A DNA stretch of 64,000 nucleotides from Candidatus Taylorbacteria bacterium RIFCSPHIGHO2_12_FULL_45_16 (GCA_001821055.1 MHRT01000001.1:27868-91867), one strand, 5' to 3'; shown: positions 4,826 through 57,249, numbered from the stretch's first letter. Notes: generated by a model not told the origin, from the sequence alone. Made by a program: numbers and translations.

Positions 4826-6151
4826 AACCAGATCCAGCGACCATAAAGACAGGTCGTTTTTGTTCATAAAGATAAGAAAACTATCTTTTTCGTCCAAACC
4901 GAGATTGAAAGCGTCAATCACACGGTCTGAGGTATCCACAATTGAAGAGACAAGATCAATTTCTCCGGTAATGGCGTTTATTCCCCAAATTTTGTCAACA
5001 AATGAAACTCTGCCAACGTACCAATCGTCCGGGTATGTGCCAGCAATGGGTTGTGAGGGTGCGGCGCAATAGACCATTTCTTTGTAGAAGTTGCCCCAGA
5101 CGCATTTGTCAGCCAAGGTGCGGACGATGGCATCAATCCCCTTCCCTTCGGAAATATTGAAAATACTGGAAATAATATTATTGGCATTGCCGGCCATTGA
5201 TAAAAATACACGCTTGGCGTCGGTGCTTACTTTTGTGCTTAATCCCGGTAGGGGACCAAGTATTTTTTTCCAAATGCCAGTTTTTGGGTCAATAAAATAT
5301 AGAAAACCACTCGAATCGGCGGCGCCTTTTGTAGTAATGGCAATCACATTTTCTGACGGCCACTCAACATTAACTTGGGTTATGGGCGTGGAAAATATTT
5401 TGACCACACTGGACCCGTCAAATTTGGCTGTATAGCCCGAGCCAGCACCGTTTTCGTTTATAAGAAAGAATATACGATCTCTCTTTGGTGAACTTGCGTA
5501 AGCGATAATATTTTCCGGTAAACTCTTGCCTTTTAGTTCGTATGGTGTGAGAGTGGCACCAGTTGTTTGGGAGACCGGTGATGTAGTGCTCGTGGCAATT
5601 TTTGGCACGATTCGGGCCTTTAGCTCAGCGTACACACCACCCGAGGTTCCACCTCGGTCAAAACCATCACCATCATCAAGTCCGAAGGCGATAAATCCAG
5701 TCAGATTCTTGTTCCAGGAGCTTTCGTACAATTTCGGCACGACCGTGTTTGATAACGTTACTATATCCAAGGTATTTCCACGCGCTTCATACACATTTCC
5801 TCTACCTCTATCAACCCAGCGGATAGCCGTTGTCGTGCTGGCTGGCTTGGCATTTACCGCCCCGGTAGTACTGGCGCCATATCCACCCGCCGGAGTATTG
5901 CTCAAAAGTCGTAGGGTAGGAATTTTGAGCTGTGTGCCAGGAGTTGCCGAGGTGGAACCTCGGTTATCACCCGGGACAGTTCCCTCTGTCCCCGTCACAA
6001 GACCTCCCCCAGGCCTATTGATTGGAACGAAGCCAGATTGAGGTGTCTCTGGTTCAAGTACAACATCAGTTCCTACACGCATGAAAAAATACCAGTAAGC
6101 CACGCCGGCTATAATGAGGAGGATGAAGAGTGTGAGGAGGAGTTTTTTCAT
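4811..6151 (-). CDS. Secreted or membrane-anchored hypothetical protein, first gene of the envelope cluster
   Basis: The product has an N-terminal TM/signal (MKKLLLTLFILLIIAGVAYWYF) and is Gly/Thr-rich. It contains two copies of the 17-nt palindrome, encoding NRGSTSA and DRGGTSG. Confidence 0.6.
   Translation of the reverse strand: MKKLLLTLFILLIIAGVAYWYFFMRVGTDVVLEPETPQSGFVPINRPGGGLVTGTEGTVPGDNRGSTSATPGTQLKIPTLRLLSNTPAGGYGASTTGAVNAKPASTTTAIRWVDRGRGNVYEARGNTLDIVTLSNTVVPKLYESSWNKNLTGFIAFGLDDGDGFDRGGTSGGVYAELKARIVPKIATSTTSPVSQTTGATLTPYELKGKSLPENIIAYASSPKRDRIFFLINENGAGSGYTAKFDGSSVVKIFSTPITQVNVEWPSENVIAITTKGAADSSGFLYFIDPKTGIWKKILGPLPGLSTKVSTDAKRVFLSMAGNANNIISSIFNISEGKGIDAIVRTLADKCVWGNFYKEMVYCAAPSQPIAGTYPDDWYVGRVSFVDKIWGINAITGEIDLVSSIVDTSDRVIDAFNLGLDEKDSFLIFMNKNDLSLWSLDLVSINN
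5641..5657. repeat. 17-nt palindromic repeat CCGAGGTTCCACCTCGG, copy 1
   Basis: Exact palindrome (7-bp stem, 3-nt centre), located inside the 4811..6151 CDS. Confidence 0.9.
5947..5963. repeat. 17-nt palindromic repeat CCGAGGTGGAACCTCGG, copy 2
   Basis: Exact copy in the opposite orientation to copy 1, in the same CDS about 290 nt away. Confidence 0.9.
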
Positions 6152-51119: not shown

Positions 51120-53117
51120 CTACACCAAGAACGCCACGATCAACAGCGCCACGATGTTCAAAATCTTGATCATCGGATTGATAGCCGGACCGGCAGTGTC
51201 TTTGTACGGATCGCCGACGGTGTCGCCTGTAACGGCAGCCTTGTGGGCATCGGAGCCTTTGCCGCCATGGGCGCCACCTTCAATATGTTTTTTGGCATTG
51301 TCCCAGGCGCCACCACCTGATGTCATAGAGATGGCCACGAAGAGACCTGTGACTATTGAGCCGACTAAGAGACCGCCGAGAGCAACTGGACCAAGGATGA
51401 AACCAACCAGGATAGGAGCGAGAACAGGGATGAGGGCTGGGATGATCATTTCTTTAATTGCAGCTGAAGTCACGATATCTACACAGCGGGCATAATCAGG
51501 CTTGGCGGTTCCTTGCATGATACCTTTGATCTCACGGAATTGGCGACGGACTTCCTCAACGACTTTGCCAGCGGCCTTGCCAACAGCTTCCATGGAGAGA
51601 GCGGCAAAGTAATATGGCAGAAGTCCGCCAATGAACAGGCCGACAATAATCAATGGGTCGCTCAAATCAAAAGCCATGTCCGGAACGAGATGCGTATATT
51701 CCGCGAAAAGAACGAGAGCGGCCAAGCCGGCGGATCCGATGGCATAGCCCTTGGTGACGGCCTTTGTTGTATTTCCTACTGCGTCTAATGGGTCGGTCAC
51801 ATCGCGGATTTCCTGTGGAAGATGTGCCATTTCAGCGATACCACCAGCGTTATCGGTGATGGGTCCATAAGCATCAATGGCCACGATAATCCCAGCCATC
51901 GAGAGCATAGACATGGCTGCAACAGCAACTCCATAAATTCCGGCGAAATAATAGGCAGCTAGGATTCCAGCCACAATAGTGAGAAGTGGCCAGGCGGTTG
52001 CCTTCATTGAAATGGCTAGACCTTGGATGATGTTGGTTCCATGTCCGGAGACTGAAGCGTTGGCGATGGATTTTACCGGAGCATATTTAGTTGAAGTGTA
52101 GTATTCGGTGATCACCACTAAAAGTGCAGTAACAATGAGACCAACAAGAGTACAACCGAAGAGGTTGGCGACACTATATGTTCCATTTTCGCCCATGATC
52201 CAAGAAGTAATAGGGTAAAAGATGATGGCAGCCAGAACGCCGGCAACTGTCAAGCCTTTGTACATGGCACCCATGATATTTGGCGTCACGCCCTCCTTTG
52301 TTTTACTCATGCGGACGAACCAGGTGCCGATAATGGAAGCGATGATGGCGATACCGCCTAGAGCCAATGGGTACATTAGTGCGCCATCAAATCCTTTGAA
52401 GAGGGAAGCGCCAAGCATCATAGTGGCAATCGTGGTGACGGCATAAGTCTCAAAAAGGTCCGCAGCCATGCCCGCGCAGTCTCCAACATTGTCTCCAACA
52501 TTGTCAGCGATGACTCCGGGATTTCTCGGATCATCTTCCGGAATGCCGGCCTCAACTTTTCCCACAAGGTCAGTGCCGACATCGGCGGCCTTGGTGAAAA
52601 TGCCTCCGCCGAGACGAGCGAAGACGGAAATGAGAGAAGCGCCAAAGGCCAGACCGACGAGTGAGGAGACGTCTTGGGTGATGGTATAGAACACAGTTAC
52701 ACCGAGAAGTGCCAGACCGACAACGAAAAGACCGGTGACAGCTCCGCCATTGAAGGCCAGTGAAAGTGCCGCGCCGAGACCTTTGCGAGCCGCTTCGGTA
52801 GTGCGGATGTTGGAACGGACAGAAACATTCATGCCGATGTAGCCGGCGAGTGCCGACAAGACGGCTCCGACGATGAATCCGACGGCAATAGTAATGCCCA
52901 GAGTCAACCAGAGAACGATGAAAAGGACCACGGCAATCAGGGTGATGGTTTTGTACTGTCTGTTCAAATAAGCTTTGGCACCGGCTTGAATAGCAGCGGC
53001 AATTTCTTTCATTTTGTCATTGCCTGTCGGCTTCTTCATGATCGAAGAGATCAAAAATGTGCCATAGCCGAGAGCGAGACCCGAGCTGATAAGGGCGAAC
53101 CAGATGTAGATGGACAT
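51120..53117 (-). CDS. hppA: Membrane-bound proton/sodium-translocating pyrophosphatase
   Basis: The 665-aa polytopic product carries V-PPase motifs ([19 protein letters not shown] and DNVGDNVGD). Confidence 0.95.
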
Positions 53118-53489
53118 GGGTGTGTGACGTTGATTTTAGTAAGGACTTCTAATATTTTTACAATGGGTCAAATATAGAGTAAAAATTGTGTTTATGCAAG
53201 GAAAGGACATTTTATGGTGCGTGTTCATTTGCTTGACGTTAGAAATCTTTTTGTGTAGGCTTGCGGTAAGGGTTATTTGCTGGATAGAGGGGGATGAAAG
53301 CTCTTGTTGCAATAGTCAAAAGTACACTGGCTTGGTAGCAACAATAAACCATTTGAGACTGTGGCGTATCCGCATTCGATTTTGGGAGCATGTTAATAAC
53401 CACGCCCTCACTTACGAAAGTTTCACGTCCTGCCGAGAAGGATCGCGGAAAACCCGATGGCGTGTCCCATAAGGAGCGCCATTTTTATT

Positions 53490-53780
53490 TTACGCCAATC
53501 TGACTTCCTTTCCGAAAACCTTGGCGATGCGATAGAGGGTAGTGAGTGTAAATGAGTGTCGGCCGCTCTCGAGGCGGGCAATAACAGACTGGGGCATGCC
53601 AGCCTTCTTGGCGAGAGTAGCTTGGCTCATCTTCTTGGCTTGGCGTGCTTCGCGGATCTGTCGGATCATGCTGTGACGTATGAGGCTTTCCTCGTGTGCT
53701 TTGCGAAAAGCTGGAGATTTCAAGTGTTTTGCTAACACTTCTTCCCACGTATATAGTTTGTGATCGCCGATAATTTTCAT
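53490..53780 (-). CDS. higA: HigA-like XRE-family HTH antitoxin
   Basis: The product carries the HTH MSQATLAKKAGMPQSVIARLESG. Its start overlaps the stop of the upstream toxin gene by 4 nt. Confidence 0.7.
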   Translation of the reverse strand: MKIIGDHKLYTWEEVLAKHLKSPAFRKAHEESLIRHSMIRQIREARQAKKMSQATLAKKAGMPQSVIARLESGRHSFTLTTLYRIAKVFGKEVRLA

Positions 53781-54094
53781 ATTATTTTTTTATTAATTTC
53801 CTTTAATAATAAGGCGTATAGTTTTTGTGCCATCTTGACTTCATTTCGGGGAGTTTTTACAGTTTTCTTTTGGAATGCAGTTAGTATATACACAGTTGAA
53901 TATTCAATACAAAACAAAACTCTGTAGGAACTTACTCGCAACTCTTTTATGGGTCCCCTGACTTCTTTTAAATATATTTGCTCAAAGTTTTCATCACTCA
54001 ATGCAGTGATCGCTTCACGAATTTTGTGACGATTTTCGTTATCTAGTGAATCAAAAAACTCTCTAGGACGTTCGAACCATGATATATTCAGCAT
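53777..54094 (-). CDS. higB: HigB/RelE-superfamily toxin
   Basis: This 105-aa RelE/ParE-fold-like protein sits upstream of the HTH antitoxin, the higBA gene order. Confidence 0.6.
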   Translation of the reverse strand: MLNISWFERPREFFDSLDNENRHKIREAITALSDENFEQIYLKEVRGPIKELRVSSYRVLFCIEYSTVYILTAFQKKTVKTPRNEVKMAQKLYALLLKEINKKII

Positions 54095-54312
54095 TTTTGT
54101 TGCCGGTGATATTCATGACAAGATATGCAGGTATCTTCCTTTGGCGCCTAGGAGTGAGTATAGCAAAATTGCTATATCTGTCAAGGTTCATTTTTCGCTA
54201 TCCAACGAGCTGGGCTTATTTGTCACAAAACTTGACAAAATGAGTTACAATGTGCTATAATACTTAACTCATAGTCATCCTCGGTTCCTCAAGCCGGCAG
54301 AAAGGCTGACAT

Positions 54313-54753
54313 ATGAAAAGAGTACTTGTAGTAGTACTGCTCGTTGCAATAATGAACGTCACCGCAAACTGCGCCCCAGCTAGCAAGGCGCCTTCGGTAA
54401 ACCGGCTGATCGCCGCTCTGATCGAAGTGGAATCGCATGGAAACGACCAAGCGATCGGTGACAAACATATGAAGGAAAAGGCGTATGGGGCACTGCAAAT
54501 CCGCAAGCCCTGCGTTCTAGATGTGAATCAGCGCCTCGGTACCAAGCACCGTCCGGAAGACATGCTCGGTAACCGCTCCCTGTCAGTGAAAGTCTGTCGT
54601 ACATACCTTGAACGGTATGCGAACAGAAAAGCACTGGGGAGAGAGCCAACGTTAGAAGACTTGGCTCGCATATGGAATGGAGGACCTATGGGCTGGAGGA
54701 AGCAAAGTACCCTCGGCTATTGGTCCAAAGTAGAGAAGGCTCTGGAAAGATAG
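54313..54753 (+). CDS. Lytic transglycosylase (SLT domain), secreted
   Basis: The product has a signal peptide, then the active-site context LIEVESHGN and YGALQI (GLMQ-like). Confidence 0.65.
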   Translation: MKRVLVVVLLVAIMNVTANCAPASKAPSVNRLIAALIEVESHGNDQAIGDKHMKEKAYGALQIRKPCVLDVNQRLGTKHRPEDMLGNRSLSVKVCRTYLERYANRKALGREPTLEDLARIWNGGPMGWRKQSTLGYWSKVEKALER

Positions 54754-54848
54754 AGCAAACTAGCATCCCGTTAATAGTCGCGCCGCCACCGAGTATCCTC
54801 GGGGCGGCGCTTTCACTTTTTTCAAAGAAGCGTTATAGTTTAGATATC

Positions 54849-55070
54849 ATGACGGACCTGAATAGACAATTTCTTTTGTTTCTGGGGAAAAATATTCGCC
54901 GGCTTCGCGAACACAGAAATATTTCGCAGGAGGAATTCGGTGAGATCGTAGGAGTGCACAGGACATATGTCGGTATGATTGAAAGAGGAGAGAAAAACAT
55001 CACTATTTTCAGTTTGAGAAAATTTGCCGAGGCGCTCGGCGTAAGAGTCAAGGACTTGATTGATTTCTAG
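54849..55070 (+). CDS. XRE-family HTH transcriptional regulator
   Basis: The product carries the HTH ISQEEFGEIVGVHRTYVGMIERGEKN. I placed the start at the internal ATG at 54849. Confidence 0.65.
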   Translation: MTDLNRQFLLFLGKNIRRLREHRNISQEEFGEIVGVHRTYVGMIERGEKNITIFSLRKFAEALGVRVKDLIDF

Positions 55071-55210
55071 CGTTACTGGCGCTACTTATAGTTATCCACA
55101 GGTCAAGTTTGTGCAACCCTTGACTCTTTTTCGTAATTGGCTATGATATCCATAGATAGCGCTAACTATAGTATTCATAACGAATATGAGGCGCTAATGG
55201 AGAACTTCCT

Positions 55211-55342
55211 ATGCCTGAAGGTAATTGTGACGGTGATGGTCAGAAAATAGTGAAGCTGAAGCTTCGTGGAGATGATTCGGATGACGAGCCACAGATTTGG
55301 CTATTCAAGACCGAACCTAAAGTGCCGCCTGACCGCAGATGA
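55211..55342 (+). CDS. Small acidic ORF (43 aa), speculative
   Basis: A GGAG sits 8 nt upstream of the ATG. The translation is MPEGNCDGDGQKIVKLKLRGDDSDDEPQIWLFKTEPKVPPDRR. Confidence 0.2.
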   Translation: MPEGNCDGDGQKIVKLKLRGDDSDDEPQIWLFKTEPKVPPDRR

Positions 55343-55423
55343 TTTGCCTCAATGAGGTAGAGTCGCTGGGTATTTGATTCCCAGGGTTCGTTATAATAGC
55401 AACAACAATAGTTCCTTGATCTT

Positions 55424-55540
55424 ATGAAGATTACGGAGAATGGTTCTGGCGGTCACGGAAACGGCAATGCTGGTTCTGGTGGTCAATCCGGAGGTCACGG
55501 TGGCTCCTCGGGTGGAGGTAGCGGCATCCGTGGCAAGTAA
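55424..55540 (+). CDS. Gly/His/Ser/Asn-rich 38-aa peptide gene (candidate small secreted or modified peptide)
   Basis: The translation is MKITENGSGGHGNGNAGSGGQSGGHGGSSGGGSGIRGK. It is followed by the hairpin GGAGGAG-TCTCAGG-CTCCTCC and a T-rich tract before the next ORF. Confidence 0.35.
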   Translation: MKITENGSGGHGNGNAGSGGQSGGHGGSSGGGSGIRGK

Positions 55541-55580
55541 CAATCAAGGAGGAGTCTCAGGCTCCTCCCCCTTTAATTTT

Positions 55581-55934
55581 ATGAAGACAAAAATTACCAA
55601 AAATAAATATCCGCTGGTAAAAGTTGTTTGGCGCGATTCAAACATATACCGTCTGCAAGATTCGGTCGAATATGCTTTGGATAATTACGCCATTGAAATC
55701 ATCACTACTGTTGGTTTTCTTATTGGTTATCAGGACAAGAATCCTATACTTGTCAGGGATCTTTTGAATAAAAATATTGATCAGAGATGTTCTGTGGTCA
55801 TACCTGTAGAAAATATAGTGAATTTGGTGAAAGTAAAAATGGCAGGTGGTGGAGACGCTTACAATGATGATGGTTTAGCATGGTTACCAAAAACTGAGGC
55901 GAAGATATCTCCCAAACAAAAATCCCAAAGCTAG
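55581..55934 (+). CDS. Hypothetical protein downstream of the Gly-rich peptide
   Basis: This 117-aa product begins MKTKITKNKYPLVKVVWRDSNIYRL. I recognise no family. Confidence 0.4.
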   Translation: MKTKITKNKYPLVKVVWRDSNIYRLQDSVEYALDNYAIEIITTVGFLIGYQDKNPILVRDLLNKNIDQRCSVVIPVENIVNLVKVKMAGGGDAYNDDGLAWLPKTEAKISPKQKSQS

Positions 55935-55974
55935 CTTTGGGATTTTTGTAGCTTTGGTCGGCTGGAGTGTTAGA

Positions 55975-57249
55975 TTATTCAGTAGTTTTTTCTTTATTTT
56001 CTTTCGCAGAAGTTTCCTTCACCTCTTCTTTCGATGCTTGAACCTTCTCGACTTTTTCGTCCGTCTCAGCGTTTTTTGTTTCAACTGATTCGGCGGCTAC
56101 TTCCTCTTCATTTTCCTCACCTTCATCATCCCCTTCATCTCCGGCGGACTTGATGTCTATCTTCCAGCCGGTGAGTTTGGCAGCGAGACGGACATTCTGA
56201 CCACCCTTGCCGATGGCCAGAGACTGCTCATCTTCGGTAACCGTGACGATGGCACGGTGAGCTTTCTCGTCCAATTCAATGGAAATAACCTCGGCAGGTG
56301 AGAGAGCTTCTTCAATAAAGAGGGCGGGATCCTCATTCCATTCAATAATGTCAATCTTTTCTCCTGACAATTCGCTGGTGACAGTGGAGACACGGACGCC
56401 GCGCTGACCGACCATGGAGCCAATGGGGTCAATGTGTGGATCATGGGAGACAACGGCAATCTTTGAGCGAGAACCGGCCTCGCGGGCAATGCCCTTGATT
56501 TCGACTGTACCAGAAGCGATCTCTGGAGCTTCAGTTTCAAAAAGTTTTGCCAGGAATTTTGGATGAGCTCGGGAAAGTTTGAGGACGATGCCCTTCGGAG
56601 TTTCCTCGACGGCATAGAGATATGCGCGAATGCGGTCGCCCGTCTTCCAACGCTCACTCGGGATTTGTTCTTCATAGGCAATCATTCCGACCGCGCGACC
56701 CATATTGATGTGAACGATGCCACGCTCGACGCGTTCCACGGTGCCGGCGACAATCTCGCCTTCCTTGGCGCCGTATTCACTCATGACTGAGACTTTCTCG
56801 GCCTCGCGGATCTTCTGAATGATGATCTGCTTGGCGGTCTGGGCGGCAATGCGACCGAAGTCAGCCTTCATCTCCAGAGGGAAGACGAGCTCTTCTCCGA
56901 TCTCTGCGTTCTTTTTGATCTTCTTGGCGTCTTCGATGAGCATGTGCTGTTCCGGATTGAAGCGAATCTTGATGTCATCAACATTGGCTTCCTTGAGATC
57001 GATCTCCTCTTCCTCGTCACCCTCCATGATGACTTGGTTGCGGTCAACAACGACTTTCACCTGCCAGAATTCCACTCCGCCGGTGTTCTGATCGAATGAG
57101 GCGCGGACAATCTGCCCCTTCTTGCCGTACTCTTTCTTGTAGGCGGTGGCCAGGGACATGGCGATAGCTTCGAGAGTCTTTTCGCGCGGAATGCCACGTT
57201 CTTCCTCGAGCTGCTGGACGACTGAATTTATTACTTTAAGGTCAAACAT
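55975..57249 (-). CDS. nusA: Transcription termination/antitermination factor NusA
   Basis: The product has an N-terminal domain, an S1 domain and two KH domains, plus an acidic/Lys-rich C-terminal tail. Confidence 0.9.
   Translation of the reverse strand: MFDLKVINSVVQQLEEERGIPREKTLEAIAMSLATAYKKEYGKKGQIVRASFDQNTGGVEFWQVKVVVDRNQVIMEGDEEEEIDLKEANVDDIKIRFNPEQHMLIEDAKKIKKNAEIGEELVFPLEMKADFGRIAAQTAKQIIIQKIREAEKVSVMSEYGAKEGEIVAGTVERVERGIVHINMGRAVGMIAYEEQIPSERWKTGDRIRAYLYAVEETPKGIVLKLSRAHPKFLAKLFETEAPEIASGTVEIKGIAREAGSRSKIAVVSHDPHIDPIGSMVGQRGVRVSTVTSELSGEKIDIIEWNEDPALFIEEALSPAEVISIELDEKAHRAIVTVTEDEQSLAIGKGGQNVRLAAKLTGWKIDIKSAGDEGDDEGEENEEEVAAESVETKNAETDEKVEKVQASKEEVKETSAKENKEKTTE

Follow-up and report, generated by a model that had tools for sequence, protein, structure and literature searches.

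The question raised by this locus is whether a short, glycine-rich open reading frame (ORF) lying between hppA and nusA encodes a peptide in its own right or serves as a regulatory leader for the gene behind it. The locus occupies positions 53490 to 55934 of a 64,000-nucleotide stretch of DNA from Candidatus Taylorbacteria bacterium RIFCSPHIGHO2_12_FULL_45_16 (GCA_001821055.1 MHRT01000001.1:27868-91867); this whole stretch is called the window below. An earlier inspection of the sequence alone (the sequence-only reading) had described the patch as a mini-island of accessory genes and had likened its 38-aa ORF to microcin-type or metal-binding peptides or, equally, to a leader-peptide attenuator. 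Three features are at the centre of the question.

55424..55540, plus strand: sORF2 (sORF, small ORF), the glycine-rich micropeptide gene, 38 aa; identified by codon comparison across lineages
55548..55578, plus strand: intrinsic terminator of sORF2; identified by folding, terminator scan and covariation
55581..55934, plus strand: gene for a 117-aa protein, putatively a phage-type small beta-barrel; no Pfam match

The ORF at 55424-55540 was found to translate exactly to MKITENGSGGHGNGNAGSGGQSGGHGGSSGGGSGIRGK, with the coordinates and the encoded sequence that had been given for it. A search for homologous small ORFs next to homologues of the 117-aa protein had been suggested, and the 38-aa frame was present directly upstream of the 117-aa gene in all eight lineages compared, whose 117-aa proteins were 64-79% identical. 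In the codon alignment of these lineages, 10, 10, and 39 columns were variable at codon positions 1, 2, and 3, respectively, the last corresponding to 39 of the 40 third positions. Twenty-eight codon columns varied synonymously only, and length differences between lineages were whole codons, with the frame kept. The same pattern was obtained with 32 distinct DNA versions of the wider family, where the variable columns of the core numbered 13, 13, and 33, including all 33 third positions. Invariant glycine residues were mostly encoded by all four codons and one invariant serine by six codons, and the family means of pS and pN were 0.72 (saturated) and 0.17. Because third codon positions vary while the amino acids stay, sORF2 is, as judged from these alignments, a protein-coding gene under strong purifying selection in every relative. 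Conservation at the nucleotide level only, which the sequence-only reading had named as the observation that would speak against it, was not what the comparison gave, as the frame is kept and synonymous sites are saturated.

The encoded peptide is hydrophilic and mildly basic, and the earlier statement that it has no leader or hydrophobic segment was borne out. Since it has neither a signal peptide nor a hydrophobic segment, the peptide is probably cytoplasmic. It had also been called Gly/His-rich, of which only the first half stood: the peptide contains 17 Gly but only 2 His, and one of the latter is invariant across the family.

Family members consist of a short variable N-terminus and a nearly invariant 32-residue core, G-x-GGHG-x-GN[AG]GSGGQSGG-x-GGS[ST]GGG[ST]G-x-RG-x, followed by the stop codon, and are 33-45 aa in length. 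More than 20 residues are invariant across the 32 distinct sequences, and the window peptide agrees with every invariant position of that alignment. Most members carry an N-terminal extension of 1-12 aa, several have [YF]GG ahead of the core, and one (P0015) has no His. A degenerate DNA pattern for GNAGSGGQSGGxGGSSGGG was run against one GTDB genome per species, and five species genomes from five taxa were recovered (Saccharibacteria, Moraniibacteriota, Parcubacteria, Gammaproteobacteria, and Mucilaginibacter metagenome-assembled genomes, MAGs), the copy in the Gammaproteobacteria MAG being located on a 454-kb contig. With a looser DNA pattern, 25 metagenome contigs with GC contents of 0.32-0.65 were found to carry the family. 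A single stringent pattern was used for each of the two scans, and all ORFs recovered in them stop one residue past RG. A profile search of a protein collection added eight further members, all of them N-terminally over-extended. In addition, four related loci (L024, L037, L038, and L043) contain dispersed direct repeats 3' of the peptide gene, of approximately 33-103 nt and 67-90% identity (e.g., L037 386-934 and L024 8108-8547), for which no Rfam match was found.

No earlier description of the family was retrieved. Pfam, PHROGs, NCBIfam, and PADLOC gave no match for sORF2, for the 117-aa protein of the window, or for sORF1, a second small ORF described below; for sORF2, no Pfam family was found at E <= 0.1. 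None of ten peptides with correct boundaries was present, by exact look-up, in a collection of 15 billion proteins, and a PDB sequence search returned a chance match only (E 0.45). Among 2.9 million viral contigs, 0 matched the DNA pattern; phage and plasmid collections searched with tblastn also gave no match, a result that is uninformative given the BLAST low-complexity filter. A full-text literature search for peptide strings retrieved only an unrelated paper on zebrafish FUS, and a keyword search found no description of the family. A non-coding RNA identity of the locus was also considered, and nothing was found in Rfam for 53000-56100 (E <= 1) or for six other loci (gathering threshold). 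As far as these scans and searches reach, the family is sporadically distributed across phyla and previously unannotated.

The family is missing from curated libraries because gene callers overlook it or take the wrong frame. None of the three forward frames is interrupted by a stop codon in the GGN repeats, and automated gene calls over the glycine-rich stretch (55440-55934 in the window) are in the wrong frame. Such calls appear either as false N-terminal extensions of the 117-aa protein by 40-60 aa (P0001, P0005, and P0006) or as overlapping ORFs of 40-48 aa (e.g., L005 77-223 and L010 1016-1138). A frameshift fusion of sORF2 with the 117-aa gene was considered and rejected. The long open frame on which it would depend (164 aa here; also in P0001, P0005, and P0006) is a by-product of the stop-free GGN repeats, and it is broken or lies in another frame in L004 and L006.

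The sequence immediately downstream of sORF2 bears on the second half of the question. A hairpin of 7 bp (GGAGGAG/CTCCTCC) followed by a T-rich tract had been reported there; both elements are present, although the stem is 9 bp in length, with a 3-nt loop (55548-55568), and is followed by CCCCTTTAATTTT. Its local fold of -17.1 kcal/mol (z = -2.4; 4 of 200 shuffles fold as well) and its detection by a terminator scan support the earlier description of the hairpin as terminator-like. The stem is kept with compensatory changes in seven lineages, and nearly all 32 members have a GC-rich stem-loop after the stop codon (-13 to -39 kcal/mol), mostly followed by a T-run. The window peptide thus has the layout of a self-contained gene, that is, an ORF of 33-45 aa with an intrinsic terminator within approximately 40 nt. 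Taken jointly, the reality of the gene, the novelty of the family and its spread across phyla, and the identity of the hairpin as a terminator can be stated with very high confidence.

The 117-aa gene begins approximately 12 nt after the stem. Since it has no promoter of its own and must be expressed by read-through, the terminator of sORF2 is probably leaky. The order of short ORF, hairpin with T-tract, and next gene 12 nt on is also that of a leader-peptide attenuator, in which translation of an ORF rich in Gly codons would set the read-through into the 117-aa gene; the 5' arm of the stem has a conceivable pairing partner in a CTCCTC within sORF2. This explanation of the locus is nevertheless highly improbable. 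Selection acts on the amino acids and not on the RNA, with synonymous sites saturated, and the candidate antiterminator pairing falls in Ser codons that vary between lineages and is thus not conserved. The minimum-free-energy fold of 55500-55585 retains the terminator. Moreover, the peptide gene and its terminator precede unrelated, divergent, or convergent genes in other phyla, and none of the differing downstream genes belongs to glycine metabolism. The suggestion that sORF2 is an attenuator leader was therefore abandoned in favor of a gene for a translated peptide.

The protein encoded behind the terminator has eight homologues (64-99% identity) in a set of 5.8 billion proteins, one of which is labelled Candidatus Parcubacteria, and a further terminator is located at approximately 55916-55949. 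For AlphaFold2 modelling, an input of six sequences gave a pLDDT of 48 and was discarded, and a deeper alignment of 85 sequences was used. The 117-aa protein is putatively a phage-type Sm/SH3-like small beta-barrel with a core at residues 10-88 and a disordered C-terminal tail.

To place the peptide in context, its neighbors were tallied in 23 lineages outside the lineage of the window. A peptidase gene adjoined the peptide gene in 17 of the 23: an M16 peptidase in 10 (L014, L015, L017, L019/35/42, L022, L030, L036, L041, L047, and L048), a ClpP-like peptidase in four, and a C39-like, a trypsin-like, and a YgjP-like peptidase in one each. The M16 genes start 0-100 nt past the terminator, and their products, 32-40% identical to the enzyme of L015, contained HxxEH in all ten cases checked. 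The ClpP-like genes are divergent from the peptide gene in L018/32, L025/40, and L031 and convergent with it in L044. The neighbors found in single lineages are C39-like (L021), Trypsin_2 (L023), and a YgjP-like metallopeptidase encoded approximately 480 nt upstream (L024 group). As read from their translations, the partner peptidases start without a hydrophobic signal-like segment. In L044 (522-6528), a gene for a UvrD/PDDEXK helicase-nuclease lies on one side of the peptide gene and a ClpP-related (prohead-protease-like) gene, followed by MutH and an N6/N4 methylase, on the other; the region has the appearance of a defence or mobile island. Small peptides are known to be enclosed in the chamber of M16 enzymes and cut there, and a ribosomal peptide is processed by the leader peptidases AlbE/AlbF (PMC12731061).

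We consider it probable, though well short of assured, that sORF2 is a self-contained, translated micropeptide gene that works through a protein encoded by its neighbor. More tentatively, and leaning slightly to the doubtful side, we propose from gene adjacency that the cytoplasmic peptide is handled by that neighbor, which would be a peptidase in most lineages and the barrel protein in the window. In the window, sORF1, an RNA element, sORF2, the terminator, and the 117-aa gene would be transcribed from one promoter, presumably under control of an XRE-family regulator, and the leaky terminator would yield much peptide and little partner protein. Five mechanistically unrelated peptidase families adjoining one nearly invariant peptide would be difficult to account for otherwise, and the simplest role shared by these loci would be that of a substrate for the adjoining peptidase, which would either cleave the peptide to a product or remove it to keep its level in check. 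In the lineage of the window, the 117-aa barrel protein takes the position of the peptidase and may bind the peptide instead.

Several observations weigh against this proposal. The functional role is read from gene adjacency, and vertical inheritance within the candidate phyla radiation (CPR) could account in part for the M16-linked cases. No peptidase adjoined the peptide gene in six of the 23 lineages, although three of the six are represented by short contigs. In the window, the peptide gene is flanked by the XRE regulator and the 117-aa protein, and tblastn found no M16 or ClpP-like gene in the 64 kb. sORF2 has no clear Shine-Dalgarno (SD) sequence in the lineage of the window, whereas SD-like motifs precede the gene in most non-CPR loci. 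Further, the N-terminal extension does not correlate with the type of partner peptidase, and some members are nearly without one; classical leader removal is thus unlikely. On an unrelated 540-kb contig (L053, GCA_027341405.1), a relative of the 117-aa protein with 32% identity is preceded by a strong SD, a 34-aa ORF rich in Gly, Ser, and His (4827-4931, MANQPTGPHGGSSGGTSTGNNGSGGGSHGGPRGG), and a terminator. The arrangement matches that of the window, but the similarity of this ORF to the family is not significant beyond composition, as 157 of 2,000 composition-matched shuffles score as well, and the relatives of the 117-aa protein on phage contigs were without such a Gly-rich ORF.

The surroundings of the peptide gene admit a different account of the pairing. 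Extreme conservation combined with a patchy, cross-phylum spread is typical of horizontally moving genes with conserved targets. Mobile or defence genes lie nearby: HigBA and a C-protein-like regulator in the window and, elsewhere, MutH with a methylase, a UvrD/PDDEXK protein, a methylase-like ORF, an HTH_17 (excisionase-type) gene, and the YgjP-like peptidase. The pair might then be a protease-gated toxin or defence-type two-gene module, in which the peptide would harm a conserved target, the peptidase (here the barrel protein and XRE) would neutralize it, and loss or inhibition of the partner would release it. The five unrelated families would also be explained, since any protease family could degrade the peptide as an antidote. 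However, the peptide is without the hydrophobic or amphipathic segment usual in small toxins, and the peptide and partner genes, divided by a terminator, form individual transcription units instead of a tight operon. In addition, no PADLOC model matches, the viral contigs yielded no pattern match, and the M16 gene in CPR genomes looks like an ordinary chromosomal gene. We regard the toxin account as rather unlikely.

A broader proposal, which we consider still less likely, is that peptide and neighbor form a new two-gene system in which a flexible micropeptide acts on a universally conserved machine, with its level set by the protease or the barrel protein. The ribosome or the release-factor pathway would be a candidate target because the family has an invariant GSGGQ, reminiscent of the SG-x-GGQ loop in class I release factors and ArfB. 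If this is true, the two genes would be a protease-gated micropeptide switch in stress response, defence, or addiction.

The ten M16 lineages raise the possibility that the peptide is not a substrate but a cofactor, adaptor, or gate of the partner protease, such as a flexible glycine-rich element supplied in trans. A glycine-rich loop, needed by eukaryotic M16B processing peptidases to handle their substrates, is missing from the prokaryotic M16B enzymes (PMC12731061), and the peptide is encoded directly upstream of M16 genes with HxxEH in 10 lineages. One near-invariant peptide would hardly regulate metallo-, serine-, and cysteine-type peptidases of unrelated folds, however, and no peptidase is present in the lineage of the window, so that we attach little likelihood to such a role.

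The six lineages without an adjacent peptidase, together with the hydrophilic, Gly-rich composition and the promoter and terminator of its own, would suit a micropeptide that stands alone and whose neighbors are coincidental, with either a protective or stress role (hydrophilin-like or KGG-like) or a metal-binding one. We take the GGH of the peptide to resemble the amino-terminal copper- and nickel-binding (ATCUN) tripeptide. Nevertheless, a peptidase adjoins in 17 of the 23 lineages, which we judge to be far above a plausible background, and Pfam gave no KGG match. The defining features of a metal-binding peptide, to which the sequence-only reading had pointed, are missing: there is no Cys, the single invariant His does not occupy the third position of a free N-terminus, and P0015 has no His at all. 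A stand-alone peptide therefore seems quite improbable.

The likeness to microcins, also suggested earlier, extends to a small, Gly/Ser-rich ribosomal peptide, the C39-like peptidase downstream in one lineage, and the [YF]GG before the core in several members. It does not extend to the features that define an exported microcin- or bacteriocin-type peptide, namely a double-Gly leader of approximately 15-26 aa, or a Cys/Ser-rich core with heterocyclase, exporter, and immunity genes. Neither the window nor the other loci showed a leader of normal length, Cys, a heterocyclase, an ABC exporter, or an immunity gene; no hydrophobic segment is present at the N-terminus of the partner peptidases, and no NCBIfam bacteriocin model matches. 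There is thus scarcely any likelihood that the peptide is of this type, and the reading retained is that of an intracellular micropeptide acting with its neighbor.

Upstream of sORF2, the region from which the module would be controlled contains the following features.

54849..55070, plus strand: XRE-family regulator, 73 aa, true start 54849; Pfam HTH_3, E 2.6e-16
55079..55174, plus strand: promoter and two operator-like boxes; promoter scan and box search
55211..55342, plus strand: sORF1, a second conserved micropeptide, 43 aa; codon comparison
55345..55389, plus strand: two-helix RNA element; RNAalifold covariation

The XRE protein matched the PADLOC model Control_protein (E 1.4e-20), and its gene precedes the peptide module in all related loci of sufficient length (in L001 by ORF translation). 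Two operator-like boxes, GCGCTAMYTATAGT, at 55079-55094 and 55159-55174 bracket a promoter with 10 of 12 matches (-35 at 55120-55125 and -10 at 55142-55147) and are the only matches with 0-1 mismatches in the 64-kb window. All seven aligned relatives have kept the downstream box; the upstream one is present in the window, L002, L004, L006, and L010. The XRE protein may bind these boxes. A weaker look-alike, GCGTTATAGTT, was found upstream of the XRE gene itself, near 54830.

sORF1 encodes a peptide of the form MPEGxC[DE]GD[GD]Q...PPDRR-stop, with invariant termini and an SD-like GGAG upstream. It is 43 aa in the window and 25-27 aa in relatives, its middle part changing length in frame. It was in frame in all seven related lineages that cover the region, with 8, 10, and 22 variable columns at codon positions 1, 2, and 3, and is confined to this Parcubacteria lineage; outside it, neither sORF1 nor the barrel protein was found beside the peptide. 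The N-terminal 48 residues of P0017 (146 aa, the closest outgroup of the 117-aa clade), which contain CKGDGDDGGCDHCDGACDNDNGNQ, are rich in Gly, Asp, and Cys; they loosely recall sORF1 (EGTCDGDGQ), and an upstream sORF may have been read through or fused there.

The RNA element begins 3 nt past the stop codon of sORF1. RNAalifold predicted 16 pairs, six of them with compensatory changes, and 99.1% of cells were paired, a value that 0 of 500 shuffles reached and that compares with 36-55% in slid controls. No Rfam match was obtained for the element, and L001 carries a 28-nt insertion in the loop of its helix 1. PPD is a stalling motif that depends on elongation factor P (EF-P). This motif and the structured RNA directly behind the stop codon suggest that sORF1, besides encoding a peptide, may have a regulatory role as an upstream ORF.

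The remainder of the patch and its flanks comprise the following genes.

51120-53117, minus strand: hppA, flank
53490..53780, minus strand: HigA-like helix-turn-helix (HTH) antitoxin, 96 aa; Pfam HTH_3, E 2.6e-16
53777..54094, minus strand: HigB/Gp49-family toxin, 105 aa, leading the HigBA pair; Pfam Gp49 (PF05973), E 6.8e-15
54313..54753, plus strand: SLT-like lytic transglycosylase, putatively secreted, 146 aa; Pfam SLT, 22.7 bits
55975-57249, minus strand: nusA, flank

ORF listing and Pfam recovered every gene that had been named between hppA and nusA, including the lytic transglycosylase, the XRE regulator, the two small ORFs, and the 117-aa ORF. The pair described as a RelE-like toxin followed by an HTH protein has the type II HigBA order, with the Gp49/HigB toxin gene preceding the HTH antitoxin gene and overlapping it by 4 nt. 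The SLT-like protein has a hydrophobic N-terminus and an EVES motif. Its assignment to SLT family 1 lytic transglycosylases is based on the catalytic E-S motif and a marginal Pfam match above the gathering score (22.7 bits vs a cutoff of 21.3), with phrog_600 at E 8e-4. Its gene is preceded by a promoter at 54232-54261 (TTGACA-18-TATAAT, 12 of 12 matches, with TG) and followed by a strong terminator at approximately 54780-54810 (-28.1 kcal/mol, z = -6.2). A promoter-like site for higBA was found on the opposite strand at 54184-54157 (TTGACA-16-TATACT, 11 of 12 matches); the two promoters, both near-consensus sigma-70, stand back to back within 54157-54261.

The term mini-island proved apt for only part of the patch. 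The HigBA segment has a GC content of 0.36-0.38 against approximately 0.5 in its flanks; HigBA is absent from this position in L002 and L006, and L004 carries only a Gp49-like gene there. The order SLT-XRE-sORF1-sORF2-117aa, with hppA and/or nusA adjoining, is kept in L002 and L006, which have the SLT homologue in the same position, and L001 and L004 retain XRE-sORF1-sORF2-117aa without the SLT gene. On this comparison of gene orders, HigBA alone behaves as an insertion, and the other parts, phage-like in kind, form a module conserved within the lineage. The 370 nt that separate hppA from the HigA-like gene (53118-53489) contain no annotated gene and no Rfam match. In L002, which is without HigBA, hppA and the SLT gene are 199 nt apart.

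A protein of 33-45 aa with more than 20 invariant residues, common to CPR bacteria, Proteobacteria, and Bacteroidota, has thus escaped annotation, and Gly-rich ORFs of apparently low complexity merit a codon-level comparison before they are dismissed. The pairing with five unrelated peptidase families offers a hypothesis of peptide-protease partnership that is amenable to bench work, since some carriers (Mucilaginibacter) are cultivable. For minimal CPR genomes, the locus adds a conserved module between core genes, which comprises a regulator, two micropeptides, a structured RNA, and a putative phage-type barrel protein.

Individual parts of the locus resemble known systems. The upstream region is similar to that of the C proteins of restriction-modification systems in its Control_protein match and in the two similar boxes that bracket a promoter, and the ACTTATAGT core of the boxes resembles published C-boxes. 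In contrast to those systems, no restriction enzyme or methylase is adjacent; the neighbors are the SLT-like gene, the two sORFs, and the barrel protein, the genes putatively regulated are the two micropeptides and the barrel protein, and the boxes are approximately 80 bp apart. For the 117-aa protein, the comparison is with small beta-barrels of the Sm/Hfq/YaeO(Rof) type and with phrog_25889. Attenuators of the trpL/hisL type likewise have a short ORF with a hairpin, a T-tract, and the next gene directly behind it, but here the amino acids are conserved across phyla independently of the downstream gene, without an antiterminator or a link to glycine metabolism.

Among glycine-rich proteins, the KGG-repeat stress proteins (YciG, YmdF, and GsiB; PF10685) are likewise small, hydrophilic, and basic, with GG-x-SGG-like strings; the present family differs in its single, non-repeated 32-residue core, in its association with peptidase genes, and in having no Pfam match at E <= 0.1. 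The microcin B17 precursor McbA, other Gly-rich class II microcins, and the plant shepherin Gly/His peptides are also small ribosomal peptides of approximately 45-60% Gly with Ser, Asn, Gln, and His. Unlike the microcins, the family has no 15-26-aa leader, Cys, McbBCD-type genes, exporter, or immunity gene, and appears to be intracellular.

The arrangement closest to the M16 loci is that of ribosomally synthesized and post-translationally modified peptides (RiPPs), such as pqqA...pqqF and subtilosin sboA with AlbE/AlbF. In this layout, a precursor gene is followed by a leaky terminator (a hairpin in the case of pqqA) and then by the gene for a processing peptidase, pqqF and AlbE/AlbF both being of the M16 type. 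Likewise, a tiny peptide gene with its own terminator stands here just upstream of an M16 gene with HxxEH, and the size of the peptide suits the M16 chamber (PMC12731061). The present loci differ in that there is no leader/core division and no modifying enzyme (radical SAM or cyclodehydratase) nearby, only peptidases or unrelated genes adjoining the peptide, and the NCBIfam PqqF and YfmH scores are far below the cutoffs. In addition, the partner is not fixed, but is any of five peptidase families or, as in the window, a putative barrel protein that is not a peptidase.

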